Part shown: positions 35,691 to 62,351 of the stretch, piece by piece
Position numbering within the stretch: the first letter of the stretch is position 1
Layout: each line of letters opens with the position of its first letter
Source of the DNA: an uncultured delta proteobacterium
GTDB taxonomy: Bacteria; Desulfobacterota; Binatia; UBA9968
Reading direction: 5' to 3'
Assembly: GCA_963816145.1 (NCBI GenBank)
Contig: CAWFJP010000030.1
Span: 416,001-480,000, forward strand
Length of the DNA stretch: 64,000 nt
Position numbers and translations under genes: made by a program
Notes under the pieces: generated by a model
What the model was told of the DNA's origin: nothing
Seen by the model: only the letters and a program-made list of their open reading frames with translations
Databases searched by the model: none

Positions 35691-37061
35691 ATGGGCTCGA
35701 CGATCTCAACCACCGACGTAAAAATGCGCGTGCTCGTCATCGATGACGAGAAGAACATTCGCACCACTCTTGCCTTTTGCCTCGAACAAGCTGGCTGTCT
35801 GGTAACTGCGGTAGCCTCTCCCGAGGGCGCCTGGGACGCGCTTAGCCAACATGCTTACGAATTGGCGTTCCTCGATGTCCGGCTCGGTCAATCGAGCGGC
35901 CTTGATCTCATTCCGAAACTCATCGCTGACTGTCCAAACCTGATGGTGGTTATGGTGACGGCCTACGCAACCATCGACAGCGCGGTGGAAGCCATCAAGC
36001 GGGGGGCCGCCGATTATCTCGCCAAGCCATTTACCCCGGCGCAGATTCGCCTCATCGTCGATCAGTGCGTCAAACAACGGGATTTTAAAAGGCAACTGAC
36101 CGACCTGGAGGGCCGCCTGCGCGAGGCCGCGCCGGAGACCGATCTGGAATCCGACTCGCCCAAAGTCCGCGCGGTTTTTGAAATCGCCGCGAAAGTAGCC
36201 GCGTCCGATGCGCCGGTATTGCTTCGCGGTGAAAGCGGCACAGGCAAAAGCGTGCTCGCCCGCTGGATTCACTCGCTGAGCCATCGCAGTCGCCAACCCT
36301 TTGTCGTTGTCAATTGCCCGACACTCTCCGAAGAGTTGCTAACCAGCGAACTGTTCGGCCACACCAAAGGAGCCTTCACCGGCGCCGTGCGTGATCAGCC
36401 GGGTCGTGTCGAGGCCGCCGAGGGTGGCACTCTGTTTCTCGATGAGATTGGCGATATCTCGCCGGCCCTGCAAGCAAAACTATTGCGTTTCATCGAGGAA
36501 AAGGAATTCGAACGGCTCGGCGAAAACAAAACCAGGCACGCCGACGTTCGAACAGTTGCCGCCACCAACCGCGATCTTGAAGAACAGATGCGCAAGGGAT
36601 TGTTTCGCGAGGATCTGCTGTACCGTCTAAACGTCGTCGAATTGGAATTGCCGCCGCTTCGGCAACGGCCCGAGGATATCCTGCGCCTGGCGCGGCGCTT
36701 TCTCGTGTTCTTCGCAAGATCGGTCCGGCGACAGACGCCCGAGCTCTCAAAAGCCGCGGAAGCGGCGCTTACCGCCTATGACTGGCCCGGCAATATCCGC
36801 GAGCTCAGAAACACCGTCGAGCGGGCAGTGATCCTTTGGCCTGCCCAGGTGATCGAACCGGAAGCCTTTCCCGCGCATATTTCCGCGCGGGTTAAGCCCA
36901 CCGATGCGCCGCAAGTAGGTGGAAACTTCTCCTTGGAGGACATCGAGCGGGAACATATCACTCGCGTAATCGCCCGCTCGCCGACCTTGGAGGACGCCGC
37001 GGCCATCCTCGGCATCGATGGTTCGACGCTTTGGCGCAAACGCAAGAAATACGAGAGTTGA
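35691..37061 (+). CDS. Sigma54-dependent response regulator (AlgB/NtrC-like: REC, AAA+, HTH)
   Basis: VLVIDDE, GESGTGKS, GAFTGA, LFLDEIG, WPGNIREL and Fis HTH AAAILGIDGSTLWRKRK. True start 35691 or 35724. Confidence 0.92.
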   Translation: MGSTISTTDVKMRVLVIDDEKNIRTTLAFCLEQAGCLVTAVASPEGAWDALSQHAYELAFLDVRLGQSSGLDLIPKLIADCPNLMVVMVTAYATIDSAVEAIKRGAADYLAKPFTPAQIRLIVDQCVKQRDFKRQLTDLEGRLREAAPETDLESDSPKVRAVFEIAAKVAASDAPVLLRGESGTGKSVLARWIHSLSHRSRQPFVVVNCPTLSEELLTSELFGHTKGAFTGAVRDQPGRVEAAEGGTLFLDEIGDISPALQAKLLRFIEEKEFERLGENKTRHADVRTVAATNRDLEEQMRKGLFREDLLYRLNVVELELPPLRQRPEDILRLARRFLVFFARSVRRQTPELSKAAEAALTAYDWPGNIRELRNTVERAVILWPAQVIEPEAFPAHISARVKPTDAPQVGGNFSLEDIEREHITRVIARSPTLEDAAAILGIDGSTLWRKRKKYES

Positions 37062-37068
37062 AACCGAA

Positions 37069-37710
37069 TCAATGCAGCTTGCCGAGCCGCTTCAAGGCGG
37101 CGGTCGCAGCTTCATAAGAATGATCTGCGGTGACCGCCATATAATAGTACTGAACGGCGCGCCGTTCGTCCCCTTCACTCTCGCACAGAAAGCCCAACCA
37201 GTAGTAAGGCTCCGGCCGATCCAGTGCCCGTGACATCGCCGCCTTGAGATAAGCACGCGCTTCGATGTTGGCCTTGCGCTCGCGCGCGAGCTCCGCCAAG
37301 TGCATCAGATCGTCGAATGAACCCCCCGATCCCAGCCGCTGGCGAAAAAGAATTTCCTCCGCTAACAGCACAATCACCTTGGGATCGAAGGGCTTTTCCA
37401 AAAATTCCACCGCGCCGAGCTTCATAGCTTGCACGGCGTTGGCTGCCGAACCATAGGCCGTAACAATAACGACCGCCGTCTTGGGACTGAGAGCGCGGAT
37501 ATTTGCGAGCACGTCGAGCCCGGCCATTTTCGGCATATGGAGATCGACGAATGCGATGTCTGGGTGTTTATTTTTGCAAATATCCAAAGCTTCGTCGCCG
37601 TCCTTGGCCACATCGACCAGATAACCTGCCGCCTCCAGGACCATCGCTAAGTTTTTGCGGATATTCCGCTCGTCGTCGGCCACCAGAATTCGCGATTTCG
37701 ATTCCATCAT
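37069..37710 (-). CDS. Response regulator with C-terminal TPR output (paralog 1)
   Basis: REC motifs ILVADDE, VDLHMP and EKPFD, plus TPR-like PEPYYWLG..E..G....A..YY. Confidence 0.85.
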   Translation of the reverse strand: MMESKSRILVADDERNIRKNLAMVLEAAGYLVDVAKDGDEALDICKNKHPDIAFVDLHMPKMAGLDVLANIRALSPKTAVVIVTAYGSAANAVQAMKLGAVEFLEKPFDPKVIVLLAEEILFRQRLGSGGSFDDLMHLAELARERKANIEARAYLKAAMSRALDRPEPYYWLGFLCESEGDERRAVQYYYMAVTADHSYEAATAALKRLGKLH

Positions 37711-39564
37711 GGCAGGACTCCCTCCGAGGCGGTTTTAACTACTGCGGGCAAGGTAAACCAAAACCGGCTCCCCTTGCCGGGCACGCTTTCCACGCCTATT
37801 TCACCGCCGTGGGCACGGACAATTTCCTTGGCGATATACAGCCCAAGTCCAGTGCCCTTGTCTCCCGATTGGGGGACTCGGTAAAATTTTTCAAAGATTC
37901 TTTCTTGATATTCTTTTGGCACTCCCGTACCGGTATCAGCCACAGTGAAACGCACGGAACCGTCGATGGCTTCCGCGCCTAGCGTGATACTCCCGCCCTT
38001 CGGCGTATGCCGCATCGCATTGCCGATCAGATTGGAAAATACATGGCCGATACGATCGTGATCCGCTAGCACGCTCAACTCCTGTAGCGAAACTTCGGCG
38101 CTTAGGATCACGCCTTTGGCGTCGGCATCGGCTTTGAACTCATCGACGGCGTCCATCATCAGGTCGGATACGCTGGTCGGCAACGGATACAGCTCGACGC
38201 GTCCAGATTCGATCCGAGAGAGATCCAGGAAATCGTCGACCATGCCCTGCAGTCGGTCACAATCCTCACGCGCGGCGTAAAGCAGCTCGGCCTGCTTATC
38301 GGTGAGCGGCCCGGCGACCTGCTCGGTGCAAAGATGAACCGCCATGCGCAGCGACGTCAGCGGTGTGCGAAATTCGTGCGCGACGGTGGCGACTAGATCA
38401 TTTTTGAGCTCCTCGAAGCGGCGCAAGCGCGTGACGTCCTGCAGGATCACCGTGGCGCCGACAACCACACCTCGGGTCTCGTACACGGGCGCCCCTCGCG
38501 GCAGGAAATAACGATCGCCTAAAAGTGTGGAAAGTTGCACCGCATCCTCAAACCCCCTGGGGGAATAAGCTCCTTTGCCGCTGAGCACATGGCTGCGAAT
38601 CCGTTCGATCACCGCGATCGTCGACGCATGGACGCTCTTGAGCGGGTCTTTTGACGAAGAATCGGTTCTAAGTCCGAGCAACGTTTCCGCCGCTTGGTTA
38701 ACATTCTGCAAGCTGCCTTCCACACTGAAAATCGCCACCGGGTCCGGAATGCTATCGATGGCCGCCTGCATGCTCAAGTGGGCTTGCAGCAAATCTCCCA
38801 GCGAGCTTTTGCGATAGTCGGCCAAGCGCCCCGCCATGGCGTTGAAGTCCTGCGCCAGGCGCGCCAGCTCGTCGTGCCCGTGCACGCGGGCGCGCGCGTC
38901 GAAATTGCCTTCGCCGAGTTTGCGCGTTGCTTCGCTTAAGGCCGAGAGCGGCTGCAGCAGGCGACGAGTCAAGAACGTCGAGACCAGGAGTCCCAGCGCC
39001 AATGCCGCCAGCGCCACAGTAATGGTGATCTCATTCATGCGCTCGCCAGTGCGCCGGACGTCGTCGCTCTTGCGCACCATGGTGTCTTGATTGATCGCCA
39101 GGATCTCGTCGGCGGAGGCTTTGACCTTATAGAATGCCGCTTCGAGCTCGGAGAAGTAAAGTTTGCGTAGCTCGTCGGCGCCTGTCGTTGCCTGAAGATG
39201 ATCGAACTTCGCTTGATAATCGGTCCACGCCGCGCGTAGCCCCGCGGTAAACTCCTTTTCCCCAGCTTCGGTGATATTGCCTTCTTGTACTTTGAGCTCG
39301 GCTTCGAAGATGGGTCGGAATTTCGCAGCCTGCTGGACACCTTTTTCGTGCTGCCCTGCAACCAAGAACAGCGCCGCGCTGTCCATCCGCTCAATGGATT
39401 CCTTCATGCGTTGCGCCGCAAGCACGCTGCGGTAATTGTCCTTCAAGATCGTCTGCGAGTGCGATCCTAGATACGAGATTGCCACCACCGAGAAATATAC
39501 CCAGGCTGACCAGCGCCAGCGCGATCGGACTTTGCGCAAGCAAGAGTTTCCTGTAGAGGTTCAT
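37707..39564 (-). CDS. KinB-like sensor histidine kinase (4HB sensor, HAMP, PAS, HisKA, HATPase), frameshift near 39495
   Basis: DNYRSVLAAQRM sensor motif, HAMP, AHEFRTPLT, NLIGNA, DTGTG and GTGLGL. Start MNLYRKLLL at 39564 overlaps the KdpD stop (ATGA). Confidence 0.88.
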
Positions 39565-40721
39565 TCCTTGCTCTCCTGATCTTCCAAGGACACGATGTGA
39601 AGATCGAAGCCGACAGCCGTGGTGACCAGCTTAAACACCGGCGATTGTCCCAACAGACGACGCCACCATGATTTATGCGAACGCCCGACGACGATGTGGC
39701 GAACACCATGATCGCGGGCAAATTCGAGCAGGGCTTCGACCGGCTTTTCCGACCTCAGCCGGACGACTTCTGCGCCCAGGTCTCTGGCTCGTTGTTCGTC
39801 TTCCAACAGATAGCGCTGCAGCGTCGCGTCGATGCGGTGGCCCGATTCGCCTTTAGTTTCCACGTGGACAACGAACCAATCCGTATTTAGTCGCCCCGCC
39901 AAACGCGATCCTTGACGGAGCAGTAGAACACCATGAGGCGGCGGGCGAGTCGGCAAGCAAACCATCACGCGTTCGCTGGCGGCGGCTCTGCGCCCGGCGT
40001 CATCGTCGTCGGCTTTCGCTGAGACCGCGCGGTCGACGCTTTCCGCCACTTCGCGCAGTGCGATTTCCCGCAATACCGTGAGTTTTTCCGGCTGAAAGAA
40101 GTTTTCCAGCGCCCAGCCAACCTTATCCGGCGCATAGATTTTGCCCGCCTTAAGGCGATCGATGAGATCTTCGACCGCTAGGTCGATATCGACCACCTGG
40201 TCGGCTCGCTTCAGCATCGAGTCCGGAACCGTCTCGCGAACGATCACGCCCGTTGCCTGCTTGACCATTTCGTTGAGACTCTCAAGGTGCTGCACGTTGA
40301 AAGCGCAGATCACGTTGATGCCGGCGTCGAGCAGTTCCAACACGTCTTGATAGCGCTTCTTGTTGCGGCAGAAGGGTGCGTTGGTATGAGCTAGCTCATC
40401 GACGATCGCCAGCTGTGGATGGCGTTTGAGAATGGCGTCCAAGTCCATCTCTTCGACAGTCACGCCGCGATACTCGACACGCTGGCGCGGCACCACTTCG
40501 AGTCCCTCGATCAGCGCCGCGGTGTCGAGCCGGTCATGCGGCTCGATAAAGCCCAAGACGACGTCGACCCCGCGCTTTTGCAGGGCATGCGCTTCCTCAA
40601 GCATCTGGTAGGTCTTGCCGACGCCGGCGGCCGAGCCGATATAAACTTTCAGTCGGCCGCGCTTGGCACGCTCGACCAATTCTAAAAAATCTTCCGGTCT
40701 TTTACGCTCGGTCTGAATCAA
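39561..40721 (-). CDS. kdpD: Split KdpD: N-terminal KdpD sensor domain plus USP domain only
   Basis: GRLKVYIGSAAGVGKTYQML, VDELAHTN, NVQHLESLN and LREIALREVA, followed by a USP domain. No TM or kinase part. Confidence 0.9.
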   Translation of the reverse strand: MIQTERKRPEDFLELVERAKRGRLKVYIGSAAGVGKTYQMLEEAHALQKRGVDVVLGFIEPHDRLDTAALIEGLEVVPRQRVEYRGVTVEEMDLDAILKRHPQLAIVDELAHTNAPFCRNKKRYQDVLELLDAGINVICAFNVQHLESLNEMVKQATGVIVRETVPDSMLKRADQVVDIDLAVEDLIDRLKAGKIYAPDKVGWALENFFQPEKLTVLREIALREVAESVDRAVSAKADDDDAGRRAAASERVMVCLPTRPPPHGVLLLRQGSRLAGRLNTDWFVVHVETKGESGHRIDATLQRYLLEDEQRARDLGAEVVRLRSEKPVEALLEFARDHGVRHIVVGRSHKSWWRRLLGQSPVFKLVTTAVGFDLHIVSLEDQESKE

Positions 40722-40972: not shown

Positions 40973-41312
<340 letters not shown>

Positions 41313-41326: not shown

Positions 41327-41576
41327 TTAGAACTTTTGATTCCTTTCGGACGGACACGACGATCGGATGTTTTTCCGCCAGCGGGCCAAGGCAACGAGAC
41401 ACCAGATCGCCTCTACCACCCCAAAAGGCCAGGCGCCCTGGAGAAATCCATAGGCCGAACCCAGTGCACAAGCCAAGGCGAAGCCAAGGACAAACCAGCG
41501 GCTGTAGACCTTCGAGCGCATAGCAGACCAGCATCGCTGTAACCGCGAACAAACCAAAAAGCGTAAGCCTGTTCAT
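41327..41576 (-). CDS. Small 3-TM membrane protein (copy 1), frameshift near 41510
   Basis: MNRLTLFGLFAVTAMLVCYALE / SRWFVLGFALACALGSAYGFLQGAWPFGVVEAIW, highly similar to 59847-60071. Confidence 0.75.
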
Positions 41577-41683: not shown

Positions 41684-42022
41684 CTAGTTTCCTGCGACGA
41701 TACCCCTCCTATCCGCGTCGAATGACCTGAAGAACTGGCGCCACAAAATGTACTCCTCAATCGCTACCCAGATGGTCACAAAAAGGAAACTGCCCCAAAG
41801 AATAAAAGTGAAAAGACGCATCTCTCTCGGGAGCAAGTCTGGCTCGATCGCTTCTATCCAGATGACCACGCCGACGAAGGCCAATAGATGCACCAGCATG
41901 AACCGAGCGGCGTGCATGCGTTCGTAAGCCAACTGGATCTCCAAAACGCGGCGCGATTGTGATTCACCGGAATCCAATCCCTCGTTGATCTTGACTCCTA
42001 TGGTTTCCTTTGGCGACTTCAT
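41684..42022 (-). CDS. Hypothetical 2-TM protein
   Basis: ORF with two hydrophobic segments, co-oriented within the operon. Confidence 0.5.
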   Translation of the reverse strand: MKSPKETIGVKINEGLDSGESQSRRVLEIQLAYERMHAARFMLVHLLAFVGVVIWIEAIEPDLLPREMRLFTFILWGSFLFVTIWVAIEEYILWRQFFRSFDADRRGIVAGN

Positions 42023-42049: not shown

Positions 42050-43289
42050 TCAGAACGCGTAAATCAGCTGCATGCCAAGCGTCGTCTGCTGACTATCGGC
42101 GCGGGATTGGCCTTTTTGATAAACTGGGTGGTTGGCCCAGTCCTGACGCAGTTCGACGCGGCCGATCAGCATCTTGGTGAACTTATAGCTGCCGGTCAGA
42201 GTCATTTCGCCGAGTGTGGCATTATTTTGCGGGGTGGTCGCCGCAAGACCAAAGGTCCGCGCTGCTTGATTATCGAAGAAAACCTCGCCGCGCAGCGCCG
42301 TGGTGAAACGATCGGTCCAGCCCCAGGATGCGATGGCCGATAGCGCGTGCCAGTAAGCATTCTGGTTACCAGTGGGAGTCGAGGCATTCGCTTCGCCACC
42401 GAAGGTATACTCGAGCAAGATCGTCAATGGATCCATCGGTTTGATCGTCGCAACGCTGCTCCAGGTCACTCTTTGGCTTCCGGTGTTATGGAATTGCTCA
42501 GGCCCAAATATGATATTGCTCGCCAAGGCGAAGGCGTCGCTGGGCGTATAGTTCATCACCGACGAGACCGGACGGTGCGCTGTTATTGTCGTGCGGATCA
42601 TCCCAACCGGTCACCACGCCGACACTTGCGGTAAACGTTTTGGCGAATGGATAGCTAAACAACGTGCCGAGATGACGCAGCGGCACGCCATAATTAAAAG
42701 CGAAGGAACGAGAAATATTGTCGTTATATGCGCCCGGGGAGTTTAGAATCTCCGTGCCCAATGGCGTAACGAACAAACCACCTTTGAAAGAGATCCCCTC
42801 ACCCACGGGTATCGTGGTTGAAAGATAGGCCTCACGGAGCTCCGCCGAAGGTCCGCAGCAGAACCTTGGACCGGTCGGGTTCCACTGGGTCGCCTCGTGC
42901 AGCAACTCGCCATATCGACCAAAATCACCGGAAACCCTGAAACCAACGCCCCAATCCTTTTCCGGCTTTTCTATCGCGACATGAAAATTATTAACGTAAA
43001 ACTGATTATTGTCTTTATAAAAGTAGCGGCCGGAGATATTCGATCCAAAACCCGGATGATTGGAGCTCCAAATATAAGTCGATTCAACAAATCCGCTAAT
43101 GCCGATGCCTAGCGTCTTTTCCAACGATCCCTTGCCGTCTGCAATCCCCTTGTCGAGCAAACCGACACTGCCGTCCAGACTCAGCCAGCCCGGACCTAGC
43201 GGCTTTTCTTCCTGAGCGCTAGAAATCCCCAGTGTCAAAAGTAACAAACTTAGTAACGTCCCCGCTAACATAAATAATAGTCTTTTCAT
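42050..43289 (-). CDS. Outer-membrane beta-barrel porin (BBP2/DUF1597-like), frameshift near 42565
   Basis: Signal peptide, ELREAYL, GLFVTPLGTE, NDNISRSFAF, GWD, ALRGEVF, RVELRQD and terminal aromatic LIYAF. Confidence 0.8.
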
Positions 43290-43425: not shown

Positions 43426-43749
43426 CTACGCGCAATTGCCGACACGGACGCGGATCAGGTTTTCGAGCGGCATAATAGCCACTTCACCGTCCGACATTTT
43501 GCCGGAGCGAAGCGTCATGACAAGCATCTGCGCGACTCGAACCGCCTCATCGTCGTCAACAATCACGCCAATGCTGACTTCACTGGAATCGTCGCTATAC
43601 GTGACGCCGCGGTATTGTTTTAAGCTTAGCTGATCGCAACCGTCCCCCTCAGTCTCGGAAACCGAGAAGCGTCGGATTCTTTCGTGTCGCAGCGCTTCTT
43701 TGATTTCGTCCAGTTTGAATCGTTGGAAGCTCGCTTCAATCTTCTTCAT
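43426..43749 (-). CDS. Divergent P-II-like protein directly after kdpC
   Basis: MKKIEASFQRFKLDEIKEAL...ETEGDG...QYRGVTY...VIVDDD...RSGKMSDGEVAIMPLENLIRVRVG. ATG at 43749. Confidence 0.75.
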   Translation of the reverse strand: MKKIEASFQRFKLDEIKEALRHERIRRFSVSETEGDGCDQLSLKQYRGVTYSDDSSEVSIGVIVDDDEAVRVAQMLVMTLRSGKMSDGEVAIMPLENLIRVRVGNCA

Positions 43750-43769: not shown

Positions 43770-44456
43770 TTACTTCGCCTGAGGCGGAACGGTTTGAACT
43801 GACGGTTGAGCGGGCGCAGCGTTCTCCTTGGGAGCATCCTTGGTCTCTTTCTTTTCCGGAGCGGGTGGCAGTGGCGTCGCTTTGCCAAACTGCCGATCGA
43901 GCGCCAGATTGACCATCAGCACATTGACTCGCGGTTCGCCCAAGATGCCGAAGGTTCGCCCTTCCACATTCGAATCCACAACGGCCTTTACACGCTCCGC
44001 ACTGACGCCGCGTGCTTTCGCGACTCGCGGCGTCTGCCACATCATCGCTTCAGGTGAAAGGTCCGGATCGAGACCACTACCGGAGGTCGTGACAAGTTCG
44101 CCAGGAACGAGCGTCTTGGCATCCGGATTTTCTGCCTTCAGCCGTTTGACATCGTCCTTGATGCGGTCCTGCAGCTTCTTCGACGTCGGGCCGAGGTTGG
44201 AACCTGATGAGGCAGTCGCATCATAGCCCTTCTCCCCCGCTGCCGACGGCCGAGGCTGAAAGTATGCGGGATTAGCAAAGCCCTGGGCAATCAACTCGGA
44301 CCCCACAACTTGTCCTTTCTCATCCGTTACGAGACTGCCGTTTGCTCGCCAAGGGAAGAGCACTTGGGCGAGTCCGGTCATGACGAAGGGATAGACAAGT
44401 CCCGTGAGTACGAGAGTTACGATGGTCGCGCGCACTGCGATGATCATAGTTTTCAT
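43770..44456 (-). CDS. kdpC: K+-transporting ATPase subunit C
   Basis: ANGSLV, GSELIAQ, YFQPRPSAAG, SSGSNLGP, TTSGSGLDP and GEPRVNVL. Confidence 0.95.
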   Translation of the reverse strand: MKTMIIAVRATIVTLVLTGLVYPFVMTGLAQVLFPWRANGSLVTDEKGQVVGSELIAQGFANPAYFQPRPSAAGEKGYDATASSGSNLGPTSKKLQDRIKDDVKRLKAENPDAKTLVPGELVTTSGSGLDPDLSPEAMMWQTPRVAKARGVSAERVKAVVDSNVEGRTFGILGEPRVNVLMVNLALDRQFGKATPLPPAPEKKETKDAPKENAAPAQPSVQTVPPQAK

Positions 44457-50027: not shown

Positions 50028-50104
50028 GATATTCAGATCTCCCTGATTATCAGCAGATCGATTGCGCAATTATTGCTTTTTGAAAGAACGCTATGGCCGA
50101 CAGC

Positions 50105-50884: not shown

Positions 50885-51541
50885 ATGAGTAAATCACAGG
50901 TTCGCATTCTCGTCGTCGACGATGAACGCAACATTCGCAATAATCTCTCCGCGCTGCTCGATTCTGTAGGGTACAAGGTAGACACAGCCAGCAACGGCGA
51001 CGACGCCCTGCTGCGCGTCAAAGCAGGGCTCTACGATATCGTCTTGGTCGATATTCAGATGCCGAAAATGGGCGGCCTCGAACTGCTCGGCCTCCTGCGC
51101 GGGCTCAGGCCGAGAATGCCAGTCGTGATGTTAACTGCCCACGGCACGGTAGCGCGGGCGGTCGAGGCGATGAAGCTCGGAGCGGTGGACTTTATAGAGA
51201 AGCCGTTCGATCCGAAGAATCTGCTCTTGCTCTGCGAAGAGATCCTCGAGCGGCAAAAACTCGGTATGAGCGGAACTGTCGATGAAATGCTTCACCTGGC
51301 GGAACTGGCTCGGCAGCGCAAGGCCTACATTGAGGCGCGCGTCCACCTAAAGATTGCCATGATGCGGGATCTCACCCGTCCTGAACCTTATTATCAACTG
51401 GGGCAGCTTTCTGAGCTTAACGGCAACCCGCGCGAAGCCGTGCACTATTACTATATGGCCCTAGAGGCGAGTTCCACGTTCGCGCCGGCGCGTGAAGCTC
51501 TCAAACGGCTGGGGCATCTCGATGCCAGGCCAACGGCATAA
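50885..51541 (+). CDS. Response regulator with C-terminal TPR output (paralog 2)
   Basis: ILVVDDE, VDIQMP, EKPFD and PEPYYQLG motifs. Confidence 0.85.
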   Translation: MSKSQVRILVVDDERNIRNNLSALLDSVGYKVDTASNGDDALLRVKAGLYDIVLVDIQMPKMGGLELLGLLRGLRPRMPVVMLTAHGTVARAVEAMKLGAVDFIEKPFDPKNLLLLCEEILERQKLGMSGTVDEMLHLAELARQRKAYIEARVHLKIAMMRDLTRPEPYYQLGQLSELNGNPREAVHYYYMALEASSTFAPAREALKRLGHLDARPTA

Positions 51542-54047: not shown

Positions 54048-55018
54048 AACCAAGTGGCAGCAAGACATCCGAGCGATCGAGCCAGGCCGCTCCAGCCGTC
54101 GAAGCAAAATTTTTTGCGTTGATTCCAGCCAACCCCGGAATCGATTTTGTGAAGCTATCGCCCCGAATGGCGATGCTTTCCTGTGCGCTGATTCTGCTTG
54201 GCTTTGTTTCGATGTTTCTACGCGGCGGACTTAACTATGGCATCGACTTCATGGGCGGGACGCTGCTCGATGTGCGCTTTTCCAAATCGACTTCCGTGGC
54301 CGACGTCCGCGCAGCTCTCGACCGCTCCGAACTGCGCTCGGTGAGCGTGCAAGAGGTCGGCGCCGGCGGCAATCAGTTTCAGATCAACGGCCGGTCAGCC
54401 GGCGATGAAACCGGCGCTGCGGTCGCCGCGCTCAAGACCGGCTTGAGCGCTCGCTTCGGCGCGGGCGCCTACGAAATCGTGCGGACGGAATCGGTCGGTC
54501 CGAAAGTTGGACAAGACCTATGGCGCGACGCGACATTGGCTGTGCTAGCTGCCACCGCCATCATGGGAATTTATATTGCCGCCCGCTTTGACTTCTCAGT
54601 CGGCGTCGGTGCGGCCGTCAAGCTCATCCACGACGTGCTGATCACACTCGGCGCGCTCTCGCTCGCCAATATGGAGTTCGATCTGACGGCGGTCGCTGCG
54701 CTGCTCACCGTCGTGGGTTTTTCGGTCAACGATAACGTCATCATCTCCGACCGCATTCGCGAGAGCCGGCGGAAAAATCGCCGAGAGCCTCTGCCCACGC
54801 TCATTAACCAATCGATCAACGAGACACTGTCCCGAACCGTGATCAACAGCGGCACCGTGGTGCTCTCAACGGGTGCCCTATTTTTGCTCGGCGGCCCGGT
54901 GATCCATAGCTTCGCATTCGCTCTCCTGGTGGGGTTCGTGGTCGGCACTTACTCGTCCATCTTTGTCTCGACGCCCATCGTGCTCTATCTCGAAGCGCGC
55001 AGGCGCCGGGTTAGATAA
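54044..55018 (+). CDS. secF: Protein translocase subunit SecF
   Basis: GIDFMGG, VGPKVG, HDV, GFSVNDNVIISDRIRE, TLSRT and GTYSSIF. ATGA overlap with secD. Confidence 0.92.
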   Translation: MKPSGSKTSERSSQAAPAVEAKFFALIPANPGIDFVKLSPRMAMLSCALILLGFVSMFLRGGLNYGIDFMGGTLLDVRFSKSTSVADVRAALDRSELRSVSVQEVGAGGNQFQINGRSAGDETGAAVAALKTGLSARFGAGAYEIVRTESVGPKVGQDLWRDATLAVLAATAIMGIYIAARFDFSVGVGAAVKLIHDVLITLGALSLANMEFDLTAVAALLTVVGFSVNDNVIISDRIRESRRKNRREPLPTLINQSINETLSRTVINSGTVVLSTGALFLLGGPVIHSFAFALLVGFVVGTYSSIFVSTPIVLYLEARRRRVR

Positions 55019-55091
55019 ATGATGATCCACCGCGGAGCGACTTCGCAGCAATTTTCAATCGCAGCAGATGAGCACCGAGAGGAGGATGCCA

Positions 55092-55748
55092 ATGACAGTA
55101 TCGGAAACTCGCATCCTGGTCGCCGATGACCAACGCAATGTCCGCGGTAATTTGAAAATGATCCTTGAAGCCGCCGGGTATCGCGTGGATGCAACCGGCG
55201 ATAGCGAGGAAGTTCTCGCCAGATGTCATGGGCGCCATTACGACATTGCATTCGTCGACATCAATATGAGCAAAATCGACGGCCTTGAGTTGATTCGATA
55301 CATTCGGACTTTGAGCGAAAACACCACGGTGGTCACACTGAGCCAGTATGGACTCGTAACCAAAGTGGTCGAAGCCATGAAGCTCGGCGCCGTAGACTTC
55401 GTCGAAAAACCGATCGATCCGAGAAAAACCCAGCTACTTTGCGATGAGATACTCCGGAGGCGGCAGTTGGCGAAGAATAACACCGTGAACGAACTTCTCC
55501 ACCGTGCTGACCTAGCGCTGGAACAGAACGCTCTCGTGGATGCACGCGTCTACCTCAAAATGGCGATGCTCCGCGATCAATACCGCGCCGAGCCCTACTA
55601 CTGGATGAGCGAACTGTGCGAATCCCAGGGCGATATTCGCGAAGCGTTGTACTATTACTGCAGAGCGATCGATGCCGGCCCGACCTTCCAACCCACACAC
55701 AAAGCCTTCGGTCGCTTAAAGCAACTGGCGACCGGGACTAGTGGTTAA
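55092..55748 (+). CDS. Response regulator with C-terminal TPR output (paralog 3)
   Basis: ILVADDQ, VDINM, EKPID and AEPYYWM motifs. GGAGG RBS. Confidence 0.85.
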   Translation: MTVSETRILVADDQRNVRGNLKMILEAAGYRVDATGDSEEVLARCHGRHYDIAFVDINMSKIDGLELIRYIRTLSENTTVVTLSQYGLVTKVVEAMKLGAVDFVEKPIDPRKTQLLCDEILRRRQLAKNNTVNELLHRADLALEQNALVDARVYLKMAMLRDQYRAEPYYWMSELCESQGDIREALYYYCRAIDAGPTFQPTHKAFGRLKQLATGTSG

Positions 55749-55894: not shown

Positions 55895-56614
55895 TTGATC
55901 GCTGCGCATGGCGCGGCAGTGCCAACCCTGTTGATCGCGACGCTGCGCGACCAACTTCGACCCGCGCTGCTCAGCCTACTATCGCTTACACTCTTGACCG
56001 GTGTGCTGTTCCCCTTGACCCTCTTCGTTATTGCGCGGCTGATGTTCCCGACGCAAGCCAAAGGTAGTCTGGTAACGCGAAATGGTGTCATCATCGGCTC
56101 CGAGCTGATCGGACAGAATTTTAGCTCACCAGCGTACTTCCACCCGCGACCGTCGGCCGCCGGCGCCGGATACGACGCGGCTGCTTCAGGCGGCACGAAT
56201 CTCGGCCCGTCCAACCCCAAACTCATAGACGGCGCAGCCGATGACCCAAAAACGGCTGAGGCTGACGAGTCCTTTGCCGGGATTCGGCAGCTGACGGAAG
56301 AATACCGAAAGCATAATGGATTGGGGCCGGAAGTCGCAGTTCCCATCGATGCCGTGACGCGTTCCGGCAGCGGGCTCGACCCGCATATCAGTCCCGCCAA
56401 CGCGGCGCTGCAGATCGCACGCATTGCCCGAACCCGCGGACTGAGCAATGACCTCCTGCGCAGCCTGGTCGCCAGACACACGCGGGGCCGGCAATTCGGA
56501 ATTTTGGGCGAGCCGAGGGTGGCGGTTTTGCCACTGAATCTAGAGCTCGATCGAACCGCGCCTGCGCTGAACCCGGCTTCACCGCAGGGCTCTTCGCGAT
56601 CGGAGTCGCAATAA
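55895..56614 (+). CDS. kdpC: Second KdpC (start uncertain)
   Basis: QAKGSLV, GSELIGQ, YFHPRPSAAG, SGGTNLGP, TRSGSGLDPHIS and GEPRV. Confidence 0.9.
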   Translation: MIAAHGAAVPTLLIATLRDQLRPALLSLLSLTLLTGVLFPLTLFVIARLMFPTQAKGSLVTRNGVIIGSELIGQNFSSPAYFHPRPSAAGAGYDAAASGGTNLGPSNPKLIDGAADDPKTAEADESFAGIRQLTEEYRKHNGLGPEVAVPIDAVTRSGSGLDPHISPANAALQIARIARTRGLSNDLLRSLVARHTRGRQFGILGEPRVAVLPLNLELDRTAPALNPASPQGSSRSESQ

Positions 56615-58305
56615 TGCGCTGGCTCGAATACACAATTTTTCTCGCTCTCGTCGTCGGGTTGGTTAAACCGGTCGGCCTGTATCTCGCCCGGGTCTTCGAG
56701 CGCAAGCCCACTTTCCTCGATCAGGTTTTGTGCCCCATGGAGAGGATGTTTTATCGCGTTTTTCGAATCGACCCCGAACACGAAATGTCGGCGCCGGTTT
56801 ATCTAGTTTGCTTTATTTTATTTACGGTCCTGGGAACGGTGCTGTTGTTCGCCGTGCTGCTGCTTCAAGCGTGGCTGCCGGGCGGACCGCACGAGCGTTA
56901 CCTCACCACGCCGATGACCGTGGACCTGGCGGTGAACACCGCCGTGAGCTTCGCGACCACGACCACCTGGCAGGCCTATGGCGGCGAGACGACGCTGCGC
57001 TACTTGGCGCAGTTATGTGGTTTGGCAGCGCAGAATTTTCTCGCCGGCGCCGCTGGACTGGCGGTCGGCATCGCTTTTATTCGTGGTTTCGCCCGCGATC
57101 GATCGGCCACCATCGGCAATTTCTGGTTTGACCTCGTGCGCGCGACGTTGTGGGTGCTCCTGCCGCTTTCGCTGATCGGCAGTTTTGCGCTTGGTCTGGC
57201 AGGGAGTGCCGTTGAATCTTGCGCCCTACACCGAGGCGCATACTTTGGAAGGCCAGCTCCAATCGATCGCCCAGGGACCGGTCGCCGCGCTGGAGTTTAT
57301 CAAAAACCTGGGGACCAACGGCGGCGGCTTTTTCAACGCCAACGGCGCGCACCCGTACGCGAACCCGACACCGTTGACGAACCTTTTAGCGCTCCTGGCG
57401 ATCGCCGTATTGCCGGCCTCGTTGACGTTCACGTTCGGAGTCTGGACCCGTCGGCGCCGCTCCGGATGGCTGCTGTTAAGTGTCATGGTCGTGATCTTCA
57501 CCCTGGGTTTGGCGCTGTGCGACTTCGCCGAGAAGTCAGTTCCGTCACAGCTTAACGGAGCTGAACGTTTCGGGCGGAAACATGGAAGGGAAAGGAGTTG
57601 CGATTCGGCGTCGGCGGGTCGGTGCTGGCAACGCTGGTGACATCGAACGGCGCGACCGGCGCTTACAACTCGATGATCGACTCGTACAAACCCGTCGGCG
57701 TTGTCGTGCCATTGATGAACATGCTCTTGGGCGAGGTCGTTTTCGGCGGTTTGGGAACCGGTTTGCAGAGCATGGTGATGCTCGCTTTGGTCGGCGTCCT
57801 GCTCGGCGGGCTCATGGTTGGTCGAACACCGGAATATTTGGGCAAAGCGATTACCCCTCCGGAAGCGAAACTGCTCGCGTTGTACGCGCTGGCAACTCCG
57901 TTCACGGTCTTAACTCTCTCCAGTTGGGCTCTCAGCACCGAAATGGGCCGTGCGGGCCTTGTCACCAATACCGGGCCGCACGCTCTGAGCGAAATTGTCT
58001 TCGCCTATGCCTCCAACATGGCCAACAACGGCATGACCATGGCGAGCCTCAATGCGAACAGCGTTTTTTACAATGTGACCACCATCTTGGCGATGTTGGC
58101 CGGACGCTTCTGGCTCGTCGCTTTGGCCCTAGCACTAGCCGGCCGTTTCGCGGCGCAAGGTCGTCGGCCGATATCGCTCGGCAGCCTGCCCAGCGACACG
58201 ATGACTTTTGGCGTGTTGGTTCTCGGCACGGTGCTGCTCGTCGGCGCGCTGTCTTTTCTGCCCGCTTTAGCGCTGGGGCCGATCATGGAGTTTTTGCAGT
58301 CGTGA
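56614..58305 (+). CDS. kdpA: Second, divergent KdpA, frameshifts near 57190 and 57570-57600
   Basis: SFATTTTWQAYGGE, GTNGGGFF, GLMVGRTPEYLGK, ANNG and FLPALALGP. Confidence 0.88.
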
Positions 58306-58442: not shown

Positions 58443-59795
58443 GTGACCATCAGTAACCAAGAATCCACGGGAGGAACACAAAGGCAGACCGACCCTTCCG
58501 CACACACTCACGGGGCGAATATACGTGGGTTATTGAGGCGAATTCATACCTTTGATTCCCTCAGCATCCGCGACTATCGACTCCTTTGGCTCGGGCAAAT
58601 GGACACCAGCATGGGCCAATGGATGGACAGCATCACCCGCGGCTATCTCATTTACCATATCACCAGCTCACCGCTGCAATTGGGCCTTGCCGCCGCGATG
58701 CGCGGCATTCCGCTCTTTCTTTTCGGTATCCTTGCGGGCGCGGTGGCGGACCGCTCCAGTCGTAAAGCGCAACTCATCGTTGCCCAAGTCACCAACGCGG
58801 CTCTCAACATCATCTTGGCAACGCTCGTGCTTACGAATCGTGTCCAGCCCTGGCATGTTTACGTGACGGGCTTCTTAGTCGGCACGGTGCAGGCCTTTCA
58901 AAATCCCGCGCGCCAAACTCTCGTGAGTGATGTCGCCGGTCCTAAACATCTGCTGAACGCCCTGGCGCTCAACTCCATGGCGCTCAACAGCTCGCGTGCT
59001 ATCGGGCCAGCCTTGGCAGGTTTGCTCATTGCCACCGTCGGAGTGCATGGCTCCTACTACGTTCAGGCGTTCATGTTCGCGCTCGCAACTCTCTGGACCA
59101 TTCAAATGCGTATTCCCGAGCGCAGCGCCGAGTCAGGACGCGTTGCGACGGAATCGCTTTATCAAAGCATCAAAGCGGGTTTTGTCTATGTGAGGGCAAA
59201 CGGCAACATTCGCACGCAGTTGATCCTGGCGCTCGGTCCGCTTACTCTCGGCATGCCCTTTACCAACATGATGCCGATCTTCGCGAAAGATGTTCTCCAT
59301 GGCGGCCCCCAACTTCAAGGATTCTTACTGAGCGCCTTTGGCATTGGCTCATTGATGGGCGCTGTAGTGGTGGCTTCCATCCCGCGCCGCAATGCCTACG
59401 CTCTGCCGGCGGTCATCGGCGCTGTGGTTTTCAGTATCTCGGTTTTCTTCTTTGGCTTGTCGCATTGGGTTTGGTTGTCCTTAACGTGCGCTTTCATGAG
59501 CGGCGTTTTTATGACGACTTACCAGACCCAGGACCAGGCGTTGCTACAGCTAAGTGCGCCGCGACATATCCGCGGCCGCGTGATGAGCTTTTATTTACTT
59601 AGCCGCGCAACCGTGCCGATCGGCACGATGTTCGCCGGCGCCCTTGCTCATTACTTCGGCGGCCCCGCCGCCGTTCAAATGATGAGCCTGAGTGCGCTCG
59701 GCTTGGTAGTGCTGGTCATCAGCACCCACTCTGGGTTCCTCCGTCTAAAAGTCGATCTTGAAGAACACGCCGACGCGCCGGTCGTTGGCGATTGA
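58443..59795 (+). CDS. MFS transporter (MFS_3/EntS-like)
   Basis: DYRLLWLGQ, AGAVADR, PARQ, SRAIGPALAG and RGRVMS motifs. Confidence 0.88.
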   Translation: MTISNQESTGGTQRQTDPSAHTHGANIRGLLRRIHTFDSLSIRDYRLLWLGQMDTSMGQWMDSITRGYLIYHITSSPLQLGLAAAMRGIPLFLFGILAGAVADRSSRKAQLIVAQVTNAALNIILATLVLTNRVQPWHVYVTGFLVGTVQAFQNPARQTLVSDVAGPKHLLNALALNSMALNSSRAIGPALAGLLIATVGVHGSYYVQAFMFALATLWTIQMRIPERSAESGRVATESLYQSIKAGFVYVRANGNIRTQLILALGPLTLGMPFTNMMPIFAKDVLHGGPQLQGFLLSAFGIGSLMGAVVVASIPRRNAYALPAVIGAVVFSISVFFFGLSHWVWLSLTCAFMSGVFMTTYQTQDQALLQLSAPRHIRGRVMSFYLLSRATVPIGTMFAGALAHYFGGPAAVQMMSLSALGLVVLVISTHSGFLRLKVDLEEHADAPVVGD

Positions 59796-59846: not shown

Positions 59847-60071
59847 ATGGATCGACTTACGCTTTTTGGTCTATTTGCGGTTACCGCGATGGTGATTTGC
59901 TATGCACTTGAAGATCGTAGCCGATGGTTTGCCTTGGGCTTCGCGGTCTCCTGCGCCCTAGGATCAATATATGGATTTCTTCAAGGCGCATGGCCGTTTG
60001 GGTTGGTAGAAGGTATTTGGTGCCTCGTCGCGCTCCGACGATGGTGGACCAGAGCAGCAATTTCAAAATGA
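59847..60071 (+). CDS. Small 3-TM membrane protein (copy 2)
   Basis: MDRLTLFGLFAVTAMVICYALEDRSRWF...YGFLQGAWPFGLVEGIW, paralog of 41327-41576. Confidence 0.8.
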   Translation: MDRLTLFGLFAVTAMVICYALEDRSRWFALGFAVSCALGSIYGFLQGAWPFGLVEGIWCLVALRRWWTRAAISK

Positions 60072-60129
60072 ATCACTACCGGTTCTCCCGTCAAACTGGC
60101 CGTGGTAAAACAGACTCACCACACCCACG

Positions 60130-60342
60130 TTGGAGGAACCAAAGAAAGCGTCCGAGCTGTTCTTTAAGTGTCTTGAGAACGAAGGGGTCGAATACATTTT
60201 CGGCGTACCGGGTGAGGAAAATGTCGATATCATGGACGCGCTGTTGGAAAGTCCTATCAAATTCATCACCACGCGGCATGAGCAAGGCGCCGCTTTTATG
60301 GCTGACGTCTACGGCCGTCTCATCGGGAAAGCGGGGGTTTAG
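60130..60342 (+). pseudogene. N-terminal fragment of a ThDP-dependent acetolactate synthase large subunit
   Basis: CLENEGVEYIFGVPGEEN and TRHEQGAAFMADVYGRL. Truncated after about 70 aa where it meets the stop of the opposing gene. Confidence 0.8.
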
Positions 60343-62351
60343 ACCGCTGGTTGCGCGGAAGCGTTACGTTGGGTAGTTACCCGGATCGGTAATATCATCA
60401 TGTCCCGGCCGGCGAACTGAAGTTTCTGCTGCAAGGTATAGGGGGTGTGGTTATGCAGTAGCCGGGTAAACACAGTCTCCTCCTCGAAAACCAGCTTGCC
60501 GCTGAAGAAAACCGTGCGCGGGAATTCTTTGGCAACCGAGTTACAGGTCTGCTCGAGCTCGTCGATCAGATCGACGCCGAGCTCGTAGCGATACTCCGCG
60601 TACCACCCCAAACAGGTCGCGAAGTCGACGAAACTTTTGAGGTCCTCTTCCTTTTTTCGCTTTAGACTTTCAATTTCCGCGTGGCCTTTGAACTGGCCGG
60701 CGTCGATCACACCCACCGAAATAAATACGATATTCTTATAGTGATTCGGGAACAACCGTTGGATGTTCAGCAACGTGTGCACCGCAACGCCGTCGAACTC
60801 GCGCACGATAATCGCCGCGGTCGGCGCTTGCACATTCTTCACGGGTGTCGGGGCTTTCAAATCAGGCTGGAAGGGAATCCCCAAAAGCGTGTCATCGAGG
60901 GTCTTAAGAGCGCGCTGAACCTTCTCGTAATGCCAATGCACCGCCTGGCAAACCAACACAAAAGCCAGGGTCACGACGATGGTCAGCCAACCGCCTTCGA
61001 GAAACTTCGTCGCCACCGTGACGCAAAGAATCGTGCCGGTGGAAAGCAACCCTAGCCCGTTGATCGCAAGTTTCATGCGCCACGGCTCCGGGCTCCGTCT
61101 CACTTGCCACCAATGCCGGCACATGCCCAACTGCGACAGAGTAAAGGTCAAGAACACGTTGATGCTGTACATGACGACCAATAGTTTCACCTCGCCGTGG
61201 GTGTACGCCAAAAAACCCAGGGCCGCGATGCCCATAAACCAGACGCCGTTGCGCGTCACCAGCTGATCGCTCAAGTGGGACAAGCGATGCGGCGCCCAGG
61301 AATCCAGTGACATGTTCGATAGCACCCGCGGCCCATCGAGAAAGCCCGCCTGGGCAGCGACGATCAATAGCGCCGCTTCGGTGATCAGCGTGACGATCAC
61401 CAAGCTCGCCGTGGTCGTTGAATCGCCGCCAAAAAAACCTCCGTAGATATTGCCGAACAGACTCGCGTTGAGGGTTTTCCCCGGCTCGTGCATCACGCGG
61501 TTGAGCAAGTAACAGAGCAGGATGCCGCCGGCGGTAAACGCCAGTGACGTCGCCATGTAAAGCATGGTCTTCTTGCCGGTAAGTACGCGAGGTTCGCGCA
61601 AGATCTGCAGGCCGTTGCTGACCGCCTCGATGCCCGTATAGGTACCGCCGCCCAGGCTGTAGGCGTGCAGCAGTATTCCCAGCGTGGCGAGCAGGCCGAT
61701 CCCTTGAACATCGCGGTTAACTTCTTGATACGTGTTCGCCACCAGTGCCGGCATATCGGCGGTATGCGGCACGATACCCAGCGTGATCACGATAATATGC
61801 ATGACGATGAAGAGTAAGAAGATCGGCAACATGACGAGCACCGATTCCCTTACCCCGCGCAGATTGAGAAAAATCAACGCGAAGATCAGCAATATTTCAA
61901 CGGCAAACTTGTAACTCGCCAGCGGCGCCGGCAGAAAACTGAACATTGCGTCGGCGCTGCTGGCGATCGAAATGGTGATCGTCAGCATATAGTCGACCAC
62001 CAGCGCCGACCCCGACACCAGGCCCGCCCGCGAGCCGAGCAGCTTGGTGGCCACCAGATAGCCGCCGCCCCCGGTCGGGAACAGCTCAATGATCTGCGAA
62101 TAGCTGGCGGAAATGATGAACACCGTCACCGCCGTGAGAATCGCCAGCAACAGAGCCAGATGTAAATGCTGCCCCAGCGCCAGATAAGCTTCCTCCGGAC
62201 CATAGGCCGAAGAGCTCAAGCCGTCGGCGCCCAGTCCAACCCAAGCTAGGAAAGCGACTAAGGAGATTTGATGAAAGACTTTTGGATCGAGCGGATCCTT
62301 GGCTTTTCCAAGCAGCAATTCTGTTAACGATTTTTTGTTCGGGAGTTCCAT
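60339..62351 (-). CDS. KimA/YdaO-like APC-superfamily K+/H+ symporter
   Basis: GADGLSSSAYGPEE, GGGGY, LVVDYMLT, TGIEAVSNG, MYSINVF and KFLEGGW, plus a cytosolic C-terminal domain. Confidence 0.82.
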   Translation of the reverse strand: MELPNKKSLTELLLGKAKDPLDPKVFHQISLVAFLAWVGLGADGLSSSAYGPEEAYLALGQHLHLALLLAILTAVTVFIISASYSQIIELFPTGGGGYLVATKLLGSRAGLVSGSALVVDYMLTITISIASSADAMFSFLPAPLASYKFAVEILLIFALIFLNLRGVRESVLVMLPIFLLFIVMHIIVITLGIVPHTADMPALVANTYQEVNRDVQGIGLLATLGILLHAYSLGGGTYTGIEAVSNGLQILREPRVLTGKKTMLYMATSLAFTAGGILLCYLLNRVMHEPGKTLNASLFGNIYGGFFGGDSTTTASLVIVTLITEAALLIVAAQAGFLDGPRVLSNMSLDSWAPHRLSHLSDQLVTRNGVWFMGIAALGFLAYTHGEVKLLVVMYSINVFLTFTLSQLGMCRHWWQVRRSPEPWRMKLAINGLGLLSTGTILCVTVATKFLEGGWLTIVVTLAFVLVCQAVHWHYEKVQRALKTLDDTLLGIPFQPDLKAPTPVKNVQAPTAAIIVREFDGVAVHTLLNIQRLFPNHYKNIVFISVGVIDAGQFKGHAEIESLKRKKEEDLKSFVDFATCLGWYAEYRYELGVDLIDELEQTCNSVAKEFPRTVFFSGKLVFEEETVFTRLLHNHTPYTLQQKLQFAGRDMMILPIRVTTQRNASAQPAV

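Follow-up and report, generated by a model that had tools for sequence, protein, structure and literature searches.

Gene content and layout of the cluster

The window analysed here is a 64-kb stretch of DNA (64,000 nt; positions 416,001 to 480,000 of contig CAWFJP010000030.1, assembly GCA_963816145.1) from an uncultured bacterium of the Binatia. About 27 kb of it holds a potassium and ion-homeostasis cluster, in which a complete kdpFABC set lies beside a truncated KdpD (KdpD-N), a membrane histidine kinase, a sigma-54 activator and three receiver proteins with a C-terminal helical-repeat domain, REC-TPR1 to REC-TPR3 (Table 1). With moderate confidence, we read this cluster as a regulon for potassium limitation and stress, of the type represented by DVU3334/DVU3305 in Desulfovibrio. 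Open reading frames (ORFs) were called across 33-64 kb and subjected to Pfam and NCBIfam scans, and 67 ORFs of the window were scanned for domains. Every gene named in the original prediction was recovered at its expected place by ORF calls, Pfam/NCBIfam scans, tblastn and PDB matches.

All subunits of the KdpFABC pump are encoded together. KdpF and KdpB scored over their curated cut-offs, and KdpA and KdpC gave strong Pfam matches. KdpA aligned with E. coli KdpA (PDB 6hra) at E = 2.7e-145 and retained the filter motifs TNTNWQ and GTNGGGFFN. The minus-strand arm runs from 48572 down to 37069, with a gap of 254 nt between the canonical P-II gene and the KdpD-N gene, and the start of REC-TPR1 overlaps the kinase stop by 4 nt. 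On the plus strand, from USP through the small membrane gene, no gap between neighbouring genes exceeds 146 nt. A kinase and a GAFTGA-containing activator had been predicted beside KdpD-N; both are present, but the activator gene lies on the plus strand, is convergent with REC-TPR1 and belongs to neither arm.

Table 1. Features of the potassium cluster, in order along the window
Feature	Position	Strand	Evidence and remarks
Sigma-54 activator (REC, AAA+, HTH_8)	35691..37061	+	Sigma54_activat 224 bits, Response_reg, HTH_8; GAFTGA at residue 227
REC-TPR1	37069..37710	-	Response_reg 106 bits; C-terminal helical-repeat domain
HAMP-PAS-HisKA-HATPase membrane histidine kinase	37707..39539	-	Pfam
KdpD-N + USP	39561..40721	-	386 amino acids (aa); PF02702 309.7 bits + Usp
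Canonical GlnB/GlnK-type P-II	40976..41312	-	Three-frame reading; one frameshift
Small membrane protein, copy 1	about 41330..41576	-	tblastn against copy 2 and pairwise DNA alignment; one frameshift
112-aa membrane protein	41684..42022	-	Two predicted transmembrane segments (hydrophobic); no Pfam/NCBIfam match
OmpL-like BBP2 beta-barrel porin, signal peptide	42050..43289	-	PF07642 positions 2-175 and 176-339 in two overlapping ORFs; one frameshift
Divergent P-II-like gene	43426..43749	-	PF00543 45 bits; T-loop and B-loop altered
kdpC	43770..44456	-	PF02669 240.7 bits
kdpB	44466..46522	-	TIGR01497 1012 bits (cut-off 527.9), model positions 64-674; one frameshift near 46360
kdpA	46524..48248	-	PF03814 678 bits, 473-aa piece, model positions 92-548; three frameshifts in first 300 nt
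kdpF	48332..48421	-	TIGR02115 38.2 bits (cut-off 26.85)
27-aa hydrophobic ORF	48432..48515	-	Ahead of kdpF, here and in locus L060; no family
Sigma-54 -24/-12 element, kdp arm, TGGCATTCCGCTTGCG (TGGCAT-N5-TTGCG)	48557..48572	-	9/11; 5' end 57 nt upstream of first ATG
Candidate activator-binding pair A: 14-mer GTTGTACTTTGCAG (48624-48637) and palindrome TTGCAAAATGCAA (48656-48668)	48624..48669	.	Each motif only twice in window
NhaP/CPA1 cation/proton antiporter, membrane domain only	48855..50027	+	PF00999 227 bits; TIGR00831 214.7 (cut-off 279.6)
Candidate activator-binding pair B: palindrome TTGCAAATTGCAA (50105-50117) and 14-mer GTTGTACCTTGCAG (50127-50140)	50104..50140	.	Motif search
Sigma-54 -24/-12 element before USP, TGGCACGCGTCATGCT (TGGCAC-N5-ATGCT)	50261..50276	+	10/11; 52 nt upstream of likely USP start
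USP	50313..50807	+	PF00582 91.5 bits; 50313 is the likely start
REC-TPR2	50885..51541	+	Pfam; model pLDDT 89.6
Cytidylate_kin2 (PF13189) + BON protein (CMK-BON)	51554..52384	+	Pfam
secD	52511..54047	+	TIGR01129 348 bits (cut-off 244); one frameshift near 53190
secF	54050..55018	+	TIGR00966 285 bits (cut-off 160)
REC-TPR3	55068..55748	+	Pfam
kdpC2, longer KdpC paralog	55895..56614	+	TIGR00681 199 bits (cut-off 152.6)
kdpA2	56614..58305	+	PF03814 positions 2-189, 184-316 and 317-548 in three ORFs; two frameshifts
MFS_3 transporter	58443..59795	+	PF05977 183 bits
Small membrane protein, copy 2	59847..60071	+	74 aa, intact
KimA-like APC-family K+ transporter	60339..62351	-	E = 4e-55 (PDB 6s3k)

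Sigma-54 promoters and candidate activator sites

Both strands of the 64 kb were scanned with the sigma-54 consensus TGGCAC-N5-TTGCW (maximum score 11), which yielded 17 sites scoring at least 9, two of them scoring 10, and 277 scoring at least 7. A sigma-54 promoter had been expected at the head of each of two divergent arms. The kdp arm has its element, whereas the best site before NhaP, the first gene of the plus arm, reaches only 7/11 (at 48799) and is no evidence for a promoter because 277 sites in the window score as high; the good site of this arm instead lies before USP, its second gene. The other 10/11 site (TGGCACGTGATGTGCT, 24714-24729, minus strand) lies outside the cluster; a GAF-HisKA histidine kinase gene (22763-24667) begins about 47 nt downstream of it, which suggests further sigma-54 control in the source genome.

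Upstream of both promoters stands the same pair of motifs: within the window, exact copies of the palindrome TTGCA-N3-TGCAA are confined to 48656 and 50105, and those of the 14-mer GTTGTACYTTGCAG to 48624 and 50127. Among 300 first-order Markov simulations, at least two copies of the palindrome appeared in one and of the 14-mer in none. In pair A, the centre of the palindrome lies 147 nt upstream of the first ATG of the kdp arm. Because both promoters combine a -24/-12 element with this window-unique motif pair, the sequence supports an activator-dependent sigma-54 regulon that takes in kdpFABC and at least the USP-headed operon. This is the part of the predicted single regulon that stood; neither promoter nor palindrome was found for NhaP, for kdpC2-kdpA2 as a separate unit, for MFS_3 or for KimA. 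Scans for terminators and sigma-70 promoters gave no enrichment over shuffled sequence, and Rfam returned no match in the whole window at gathering thresholds, and hence no riboswitch.

KdpD-N, the kinase and the activator

As predicted, the KdpD protein consists only of the sensor and USP part: its 386 aa comprise KdpD and Usp domains, with no transmembrane segment and no kinase domain. Against NF038185 ('KdpD-like non-kinase potassium sensor') it scored 382.6 bits, below the cut-off of 550, in an alignment that spans positions 2-371 of the 373 in the model; against NF007793 it scored 345.9 bits over model positions 5-380. KdpD-N has the architecture of NF038185 but belongs to a clade outside the curated one. 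Its relatives of about 385 aa are 86-95% identical among the 120 matches listed, and the best named one (95%) is from Candidatus Binatia. Proteins at 86-90% identity carry labels of Binatia, Acidobacteriota and Chloroflexota metagenome-assembled genomes (MAGs), which points to binning errors or recent transfer between phyla. A plasmid search with KdpD-N gave 442 records, all below 60% identity, and the best 30 were annotated as full-length KdpD or not at all.

The kinase has an extracytoplasmic sensor of about 150 aa and one strong transmembrane segment (residues 168-186). Its best NCBIfam rows were WalK/PnpS, all under their cut-offs. The activator shows the features of the NtrC family, namely a receiver, an AAA+ domain with GAFTGA and a Fis-type helix-turn-helix. 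Its best rows were AtoC/NtrC, and all equivalog rows fell under their cut-offs (AtoC, 393 vs 714). The labels KinB and AlgB, proposed earlier for the two proteins, were returned by no tool and were absent among the NCBIfam rows listed for both. KinB and AlgB of Pseudomonas are, like the window pair, a HAMP-PAS kinase and an NtrC-family GAFTGA activator. A plasmid search with the activator returned 550 records, which were ordinary sigma-54 regulators at about 43% identity.

No Trans_reg_C domain was found among the 67 window ORFs scanned, in agreement with the predicted lack of an OmpR-type KdpE at the locus. The locus therefore departs from the classical KdpD/KdpE system in having neither a full-length KdpD (transmembrane segments, GAF, HisKA and HATPase) nor an OmpR-type KdpE adjoining kdpD. 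Adjacency and the analogy with D. vulgaris suggest that KdpD-N may signal to the kinase. A complex prediction for KdpD-N with the cytoplasmic part of the kinase scored 0.01 against a mark of 0.32, a result that counts neither for nor against binding.

Comparison with published kdp control systems

The response-regulator targets of D. vulgaris Hildenborough were mapped by DAP-chip by Rajeev et al. 2011 (PMC3333781), and we compare the window with what the accessible part of that paper describes. There, the operon DVU3339.1-DVU3334 comprises kdpF-A-B-C, a KdpD sensor/USP protein (DVU3336), a sensory-box kinase (DVU3335) and the sigma-54 regulator DVU3334. DVU3334 targets the promoter of its own operon at GTTACATTTTGTAAC (-148/-149), a listed site reading CGTTACATTTTGTAACG at -149, with a predicted sigma-54 promoter GTGGCACGTCAAATGCT at -44. 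Another sigma-54 regulator, DVU3305, belongs to a 'three-component' general stress system (DVU3305/DVU3304/DVU3303) with a REC-Lon partner; it controls USP-domain genes and targets the same kdp site as DVU3334. Its motif is GTTGCGATATGCAAC, and the sites near DVU3305 orthologs include ATTGCAAAATGCAACG and GTTGCAAATTGCAACA (PMC3333781).

As far as these descriptions go, the window resembles the DVU3334 system in having kdpFABC and KdpD-N/USP together with a kinase encoded separately and, where KdpE would be expected, a sigma-54 response regulator. In both, two elements precede the first ORF: a palindrome of the form GTTnCA-N3-TGnAAC at a distance of about 148 nt and a -24/-12 promoter at about 44-57 nt (palindrome at -147 in the window vs -148/-149; 5' end of the promoter at -57 vs -44). 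The half-sites TTGCA of the window differ from TTACA of DVU3334 at one symmetric position and agree with the DVU3305-class motif; specifically, window 48655-48670 reads ATTGCAAAATGCAACG, the same 16 bases as the site near DVU3305 orthologs. The DVU3305 system is further alike in its sigma-54 regulator, its motif GTTGCA-N3-TGCAAC, its USP-domain and kdp targets and its auxiliary response regulator that does not bind DNA. This auxiliary is a REC-Lon protease, whereas that of the window is REC-TPR with no Lon domain, a comparison made by description. Unlike the DVU3334 system, the window has its activator on the opposite strand, three REC-TPR receivers and a second sigma-54 operon, and its kdp operon adds two P-II genes, a porin and membrane proteins.

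Since the palindrome and its spacing match the published DVU3334 and DVU3305 sites, and the gene set that of the D. vulgaris kdp operon, the regulatory core appears to be a further example of the published, little-studied DVU3334/DVU3305 design. It would combine DVU3334 features (kdp, KdpD-N and the kinase) with DVU3305 features (a USP operon and an auxiliary receiver). In view of this precedent (PMC3333781, as accessible), the core is less novel than the original prediction had assumed.

The window KdpD-N shares the N-terminal sensor and USP domains of E. coli KdpD. It departs from E. coli KdpD/KdpE in lacking the transmembrane, GAF and kinase parts, in having no OmpR-type KdpE among the ORFs scanned and in its sigma-54-type promoter. 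Deinococcus radiodurans and Anabaena, as described in the available text of PMC5716572, have a kdp operon that ends with the gene for a naturally truncated KdpD-N, and a kinase and a regulator are encoded separately close by. That kinase corresponds to the C-terminal half of KdpD, and for the regulator the authors report 23.9% identity in a comparison with KdpE. By contrast, the window kinase has its own extracytoplasmic sensor, HAMP and PAS, and its regulator is a sigma-54 activator. Bacillus thuringiensis, in the portion of PMC6488665 at hand, has a truncated KdpD with a c-di-AMP riboswitch and no KdpE; the window is alike in its truncated KdpD without KdpE and unlike in having no riboswitch. 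A literature search found no paper joining kdpA, RpoN and an enhancer-binding protein.

REC-TPR proteins and their association with potassium uptake genes

The cluster encodes four receivers, three in REC-TPR proteins and one in the activator, and a single kinase. The REC-TPR paralogs are 49-58% identical (REC-TPR1 is 58% identical to REC-TPR2 and 50% to REC-TPR3). In an alignment of REC-TPR1-3 with both activator receivers, the acidic pocket, the acceptor Asp and the Lys were invariant. In the AlphaFold model of REC-TPR2 (predicted local distance difference test, pLDDT, 89.6), five helices at 132-208 come after a receiver fold; a fold search with this model returned receiver-domain matches only and nothing on the helical domain. 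Because the REC-TPR proteins lack a DNA-binding domain and no other regulator adjoins them in the trk loci described below, we infer that this family acts on proteins.

Of 2958 candidates, 1452 were relatives of REC-TPR2 at E <= 1e-5. All 120 relatives listed were nearest to REC-TPR2 and not to REC-TPR1 or REC-TPR3, and their sources included Methylomirabilota and Candidatus Binatia. A phmmer search with the C-terminal 94 residues gave 240 clusters at E <= 1e-3, of which 24 reached E <= 1e-10. Proteins of 218-231 aa with the match at their C-terminal end accounted for only four of these clusters, and three of the four retain the receiver motifs; the other clusters were fragments or generic TPR proteins. 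Scanning a genome collection with REC-TPR2 yielded at least 600 stretches, dominated by matches to generic receiver patterns; 583 of them were confirmed, and 80 loci were kept. Most of the 80 were set aside as ordinary response regulators (34-47% identity), and only two (L001 and L060) matched through the TPR part. When 27 protein pieces of the cluster were compared with the 80 loci by tblastn, a kdp context was found only in L060; L075 and L080 gave weak P-type ATPase matches at 26-33% identity.

L060, from a Chthoniobacteraceae MAG, carries co-directionally an activator, a kinase, REC-TPR, a 27-aa ORF, kdpF and, at the contig end, kdpA. Its activator is 53% identical to that of the window, and its kinase 39% over the full length, sensor domain included. 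In L001, from a Phycisphaerae MAG, a kinase (37% over the full length, sensor included) and REC-TPR are followed by two TrkA genes and TrkH. A plasmid tblastn search with REC-TPR2 gave a single match, Acaryochloris pMB03 (L081), where a HAMP kinase, a response regulator, two TrkA genes and TrkG stand in succession. A plasmid search with the sensor domain of the window kinase matched this same plasmid only, at an N-terminal kinase fragment. All three full-length REC-TPR relatives recovered, from three further phyla, therefore lie between this kinase family and potassium uptake genes (kdp or trk), although the sample is small. These arrangements support a conserved pairing of the kinase with REC-TPR and an association of the pair with potassium uptake genes. 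No paper on a REC-TPR regulator of potassium uptake was found in a literature search.

Two details of these loci were recorded in addition. The 27-aa hydrophobic ORF of L060 lies at 10700-10780; both copies end R-G/A-C-D/E-R/K-L/V and match no Pfam or NCBIfam family, and the ORF may encode a leader peptide or a small subunit of Kdp that has escaped annotation. In the Acaryochloris locus (3462-10965) the kinase is split into a sensor/HAMP part (7181-8284) and a catalytic part (11247-12005), with transposase and hypothetical genes between them.

A second kdpC-kdpA lineage

KdpC2 is 48% identical to KdpC1. All 120 relatives listed for kdpC2 were closer to kdpC2 than to kdpC1 (median 72% vs 46%), most of them 244-252 aa long, so kdpC2 represents a conserved paralog lineage and not a recent duplicate. 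No kdpB follows kdpA2. KdpA2 and KdpA1 both retain the GTNGGGFFN filter, and KdpA2 has TTTTWQ where KdpA1 and E. coli have TNTNWQ. Relatives of REC-TPR2 and kdpC2, compared by eye, share longest contigs of 40172, 9644 and 8908 nt with the same sources. We take these to be the same contigs, and the two short ones imply a distance of less than 10 kb between the two genes.

P-II proteins and other members

The two P-II genes differ in character. The divergent P-II-like protein scored 54.3 bits against a GlnB/GlnK cut-off of 202 and was assigned by Pfam to the P-II superfamily only. Compared with PDB 2eg1, it has GDGCDQ for the canonical GFGQQK and SDGEVA for GDGKIF. As we take these T-loop and B-loop residues to be nucleotide-binding positions in P-II proteins, it probably senses something other than the ATP/2-oxoglutarate pair. 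The other P-II protein looks canonical in sequence: its C-terminal 69 residues gave 86.5 bits to NF008111, a fragment only since a frameshift splits the gene, and positions 1-46 of the Pfam P-II model matched in another frame. A literature search returned no paper on P-II genes in kdp operons, and the PII-like/kdp/potassium papers that it listed concern c-di-AMP.

The predicted KimA-like symporter bears clear similarity to the solved KimA: residues 14-487 align with residues 10-466 of 6s3k, and the cytoplasmic tail (488-670) is unmatched. Its upstream region (62351-62600) holds neither the palindrome nor a good sigma-54 site. For the 112-aa membrane protein, the Atlas gave a lead only, a 2TM domain with a score of 0.86. 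The two copies of the small membrane protein are 83-88% identical. Copy 1 adjoins the canonical P-II gene, whereas copy 2 lies beside the genes for MFS_3 and KimA. In the Atlas, copy 2 fell (score 0.97) among large clusters without a name, which have 50-512 members each and consist of proteins of 72-74 aa. A plasmid search with the CMK-BON protein gave no match. Membership of the MFS_3 transporter in the system is unsupported.

Neighbouring regions

The genes clustered between 11358 and 18596 on the minus strand look like those for a membrane-bound NiFe hydrogenase or a formate-hydrogenlyase complex. They encode a NuoB-like small subunit, several antiporter-like subunits and a subunit in which the 30-kDa and 49-kDa parts are fused, and at least one of them (16888-18045) is apparently frameshifted. 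A 25-nt inverted repeat at 35464-35534, between an MFS gene and the activator gene, is 84% complementary with 21 nt between its arms. It consists of three GTTCCA-type units and their complements and could be a regulator-binding array or a hairpin. The idea of a horizontally acquired island was set aside, since G+C is 0.53-0.60 inside and outside the cluster and no mobility genes were seen; a tRNA search gave no hit and thus no integration hallmark.

Proposed regulon and alternative readings

In the regulon that we propose, the membrane kinase, with its extracytoplasmic sensor, HAMP and PAS, would phosphorylate the sigma-54 activator, which would bind the paired TTGCA-N3-TGCAA-type palindromes and open two sigma-54 promoters. 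One promoter would drive the 27-aa ORF, kdpFABC, the P-II-like protein, the porin, the membrane proteins and P-II, and the other USP, REC-TPR2, CMK-BON, secDF, REC-TPR3 and probably kdpC2-kdpA2. KdpD-N may serve as a soluble accessory sensor in place of the input half of classical KdpD. The three REC-TPR proteins may be further receivers of the same kinase, their helical-repeat domain acting on proteins, most likely potassium transporters, and not on DNA. KdpA2 and KdpC2 could be alternative subunits that use the single KdpB. We infer roles in this regulon also for the P-II proteins, SecDF and CMK-BON.

Several observations weigh against such a scheme, and some of them favour two other arrangements. 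The kinase and REC-TPR might be self-contained and tune potassium transporters post-translationally, the activator being fed by another kinase or directly by KdpD-N, so that there would be two layers of control and not one pathway. We hold this to be unlikely, but it accounts for the trk loci of the Phycisphaerae MAG and Acaryochloris, where the pair occurs with neither a sigma-54 activator nor KdpD-N and may thus be self-contained. It also fits the overlap of the kinase stop with the REC-TPR1 start, the transcription of the activator from the other strand than the kinase arm, and the sequence of the activator receiver, which shares no more than 35-40% identity with the receivers of REC-TPR and does not have the MPxMxG loop found in them. 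Against it, the cluster has one kinase for its four receivers; the Chthoniobacteraceae locus has the activator, kinase and REC-TPR genes side by side and in one direction before kdp; and kinase and sigma-54 regulator adjoin in the kdp operon of D. vulgaris as described in the accessible part of PMC3333781. Also weighing against the proposed scheme, the region ahead of kdp in that Chthoniobacteraceae locus contains no copy of the palindrome and no plausible sigma-54 site. It is rather improbable, in our view, that the kdp arm alone is the functional unit and that NhaP, secDF, kdpC2-kdpA2, MFS_3 and KimA are neighbours by chance or by loose clustering of ion-transport genes, not co-regulated. 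The window scan indeed gave no convincing sigma-54 site or palindrome before NhaP, kdpC2, MFS_3, KimA, KdpD-N or the activator, and SecD and SecF exceed the equivalog cut-offs of housekeeping-type NCBIfam models. Moreover, the KdpD-N list shares no informative contig with the REC-TPR2 or kdpC2 lists, so that linkage of the two arms in other genomes is unsupported; the window's own KdpD-N falls outside the listed relatives, and missing matches there weigh little. On the other hand, the same two window-unique motifs precede both kdpF and USP, REC-TPR paralogs lie on both arms, the genes from USP to the small membrane gene are closely spaced, and REC-TPR2 and kdpC2 share the three longer contigs elsewhere. 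Their further coincidences, at 1182, 1194 and 1514 nt, are too short to hold both genes, and chance matches occur. The palindrome with up to two mismatches is not enriched in the window (27 found vs 33 expected), and the signal is thus confined to the exact pairs. As two different activators use one site in D. vulgaris (PMC3333781, available text), the window palindromes could also belong to a regulator encoded elsewhere.

A different objection comes from at least ten single-base frameshifts in the cluster, of which the original prediction made no mention (three in kdpA, two in kdpA2 and one each in kdpB, the porin, the canonical P-II, copy 1 of the small membrane protein and secD), which, if real, would inactivate the pump. 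The reading frames of kdpA run 1, 2, 0, 1, and secD is split into one ORF with SecD_1st and a next one with the P1 head and SecD_SecF_C. Such a density of breaks, ten over about 27 kb with three of these in the first 300 nt of kdpA, could mean a decaying cluster in which the Kdp pump, KdpA2, SecD, the porin and one P-II are pseudogenes; we regard this as very improbable. Translation on either side of each break is open and strongly conserved, as the E value of KdpA against its E. coli counterpart illustrates. Each of the five breaks that were read through (three in kdpA and two in kdpA2) is explained by one extra G or C beside the same base. Outside the cluster, an AddA-like UvrD helicase/PD-(D/E)XK nuclease gene (3633-7052, plus strand) is likewise broken into four overlapping ORFs, so the frameshifts are not limited to the potassium genes. 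At 620,955 nt, the length of the contig holding the window is in keeping with a long-read assembly. For these reasons, the frameshifts are most likely assembly errors; in addition, KdpD-N, REC-TPR2 and kdpC2 have numerous close relatives that show high conservation, which also speaks against decay.

Implications

Control of kdp outside the E. coli model is a genuine gap: in a published survey (PMC6488665), 42.6% of Kdp-bearing species had KdpD without KdpE. The cluster extends the Desulfovibrio sigma-54 solution to abundant uncultured soil bacteria and gives a concrete model of promoters and binding sites. More tentatively, the kinase and REC-TPR may constitute a previously unrecognised, potassium-dedicated two-component module found in several phyla, whose helical-repeat output would act on Trk or Kdp and not on DNA. 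In this lineage the module would have undergone triplication and become linked with a sigma-54 activator, which might let a single kinase set both the transcription and the activity of several transporters, including a Kdp pump that exchanges KdpA and KdpC on a single KdpB. Judged by our literature searches, two parts go beyond what is in print: the kinase/REC-TPR pair beside kdp or trk in four phyla, and the conserved second kdpC-kdpA lineage without its own kdpB. If experiments agree, either of them could alter views of how potassium uptake is regulated and of the subunit composition of Kdp.

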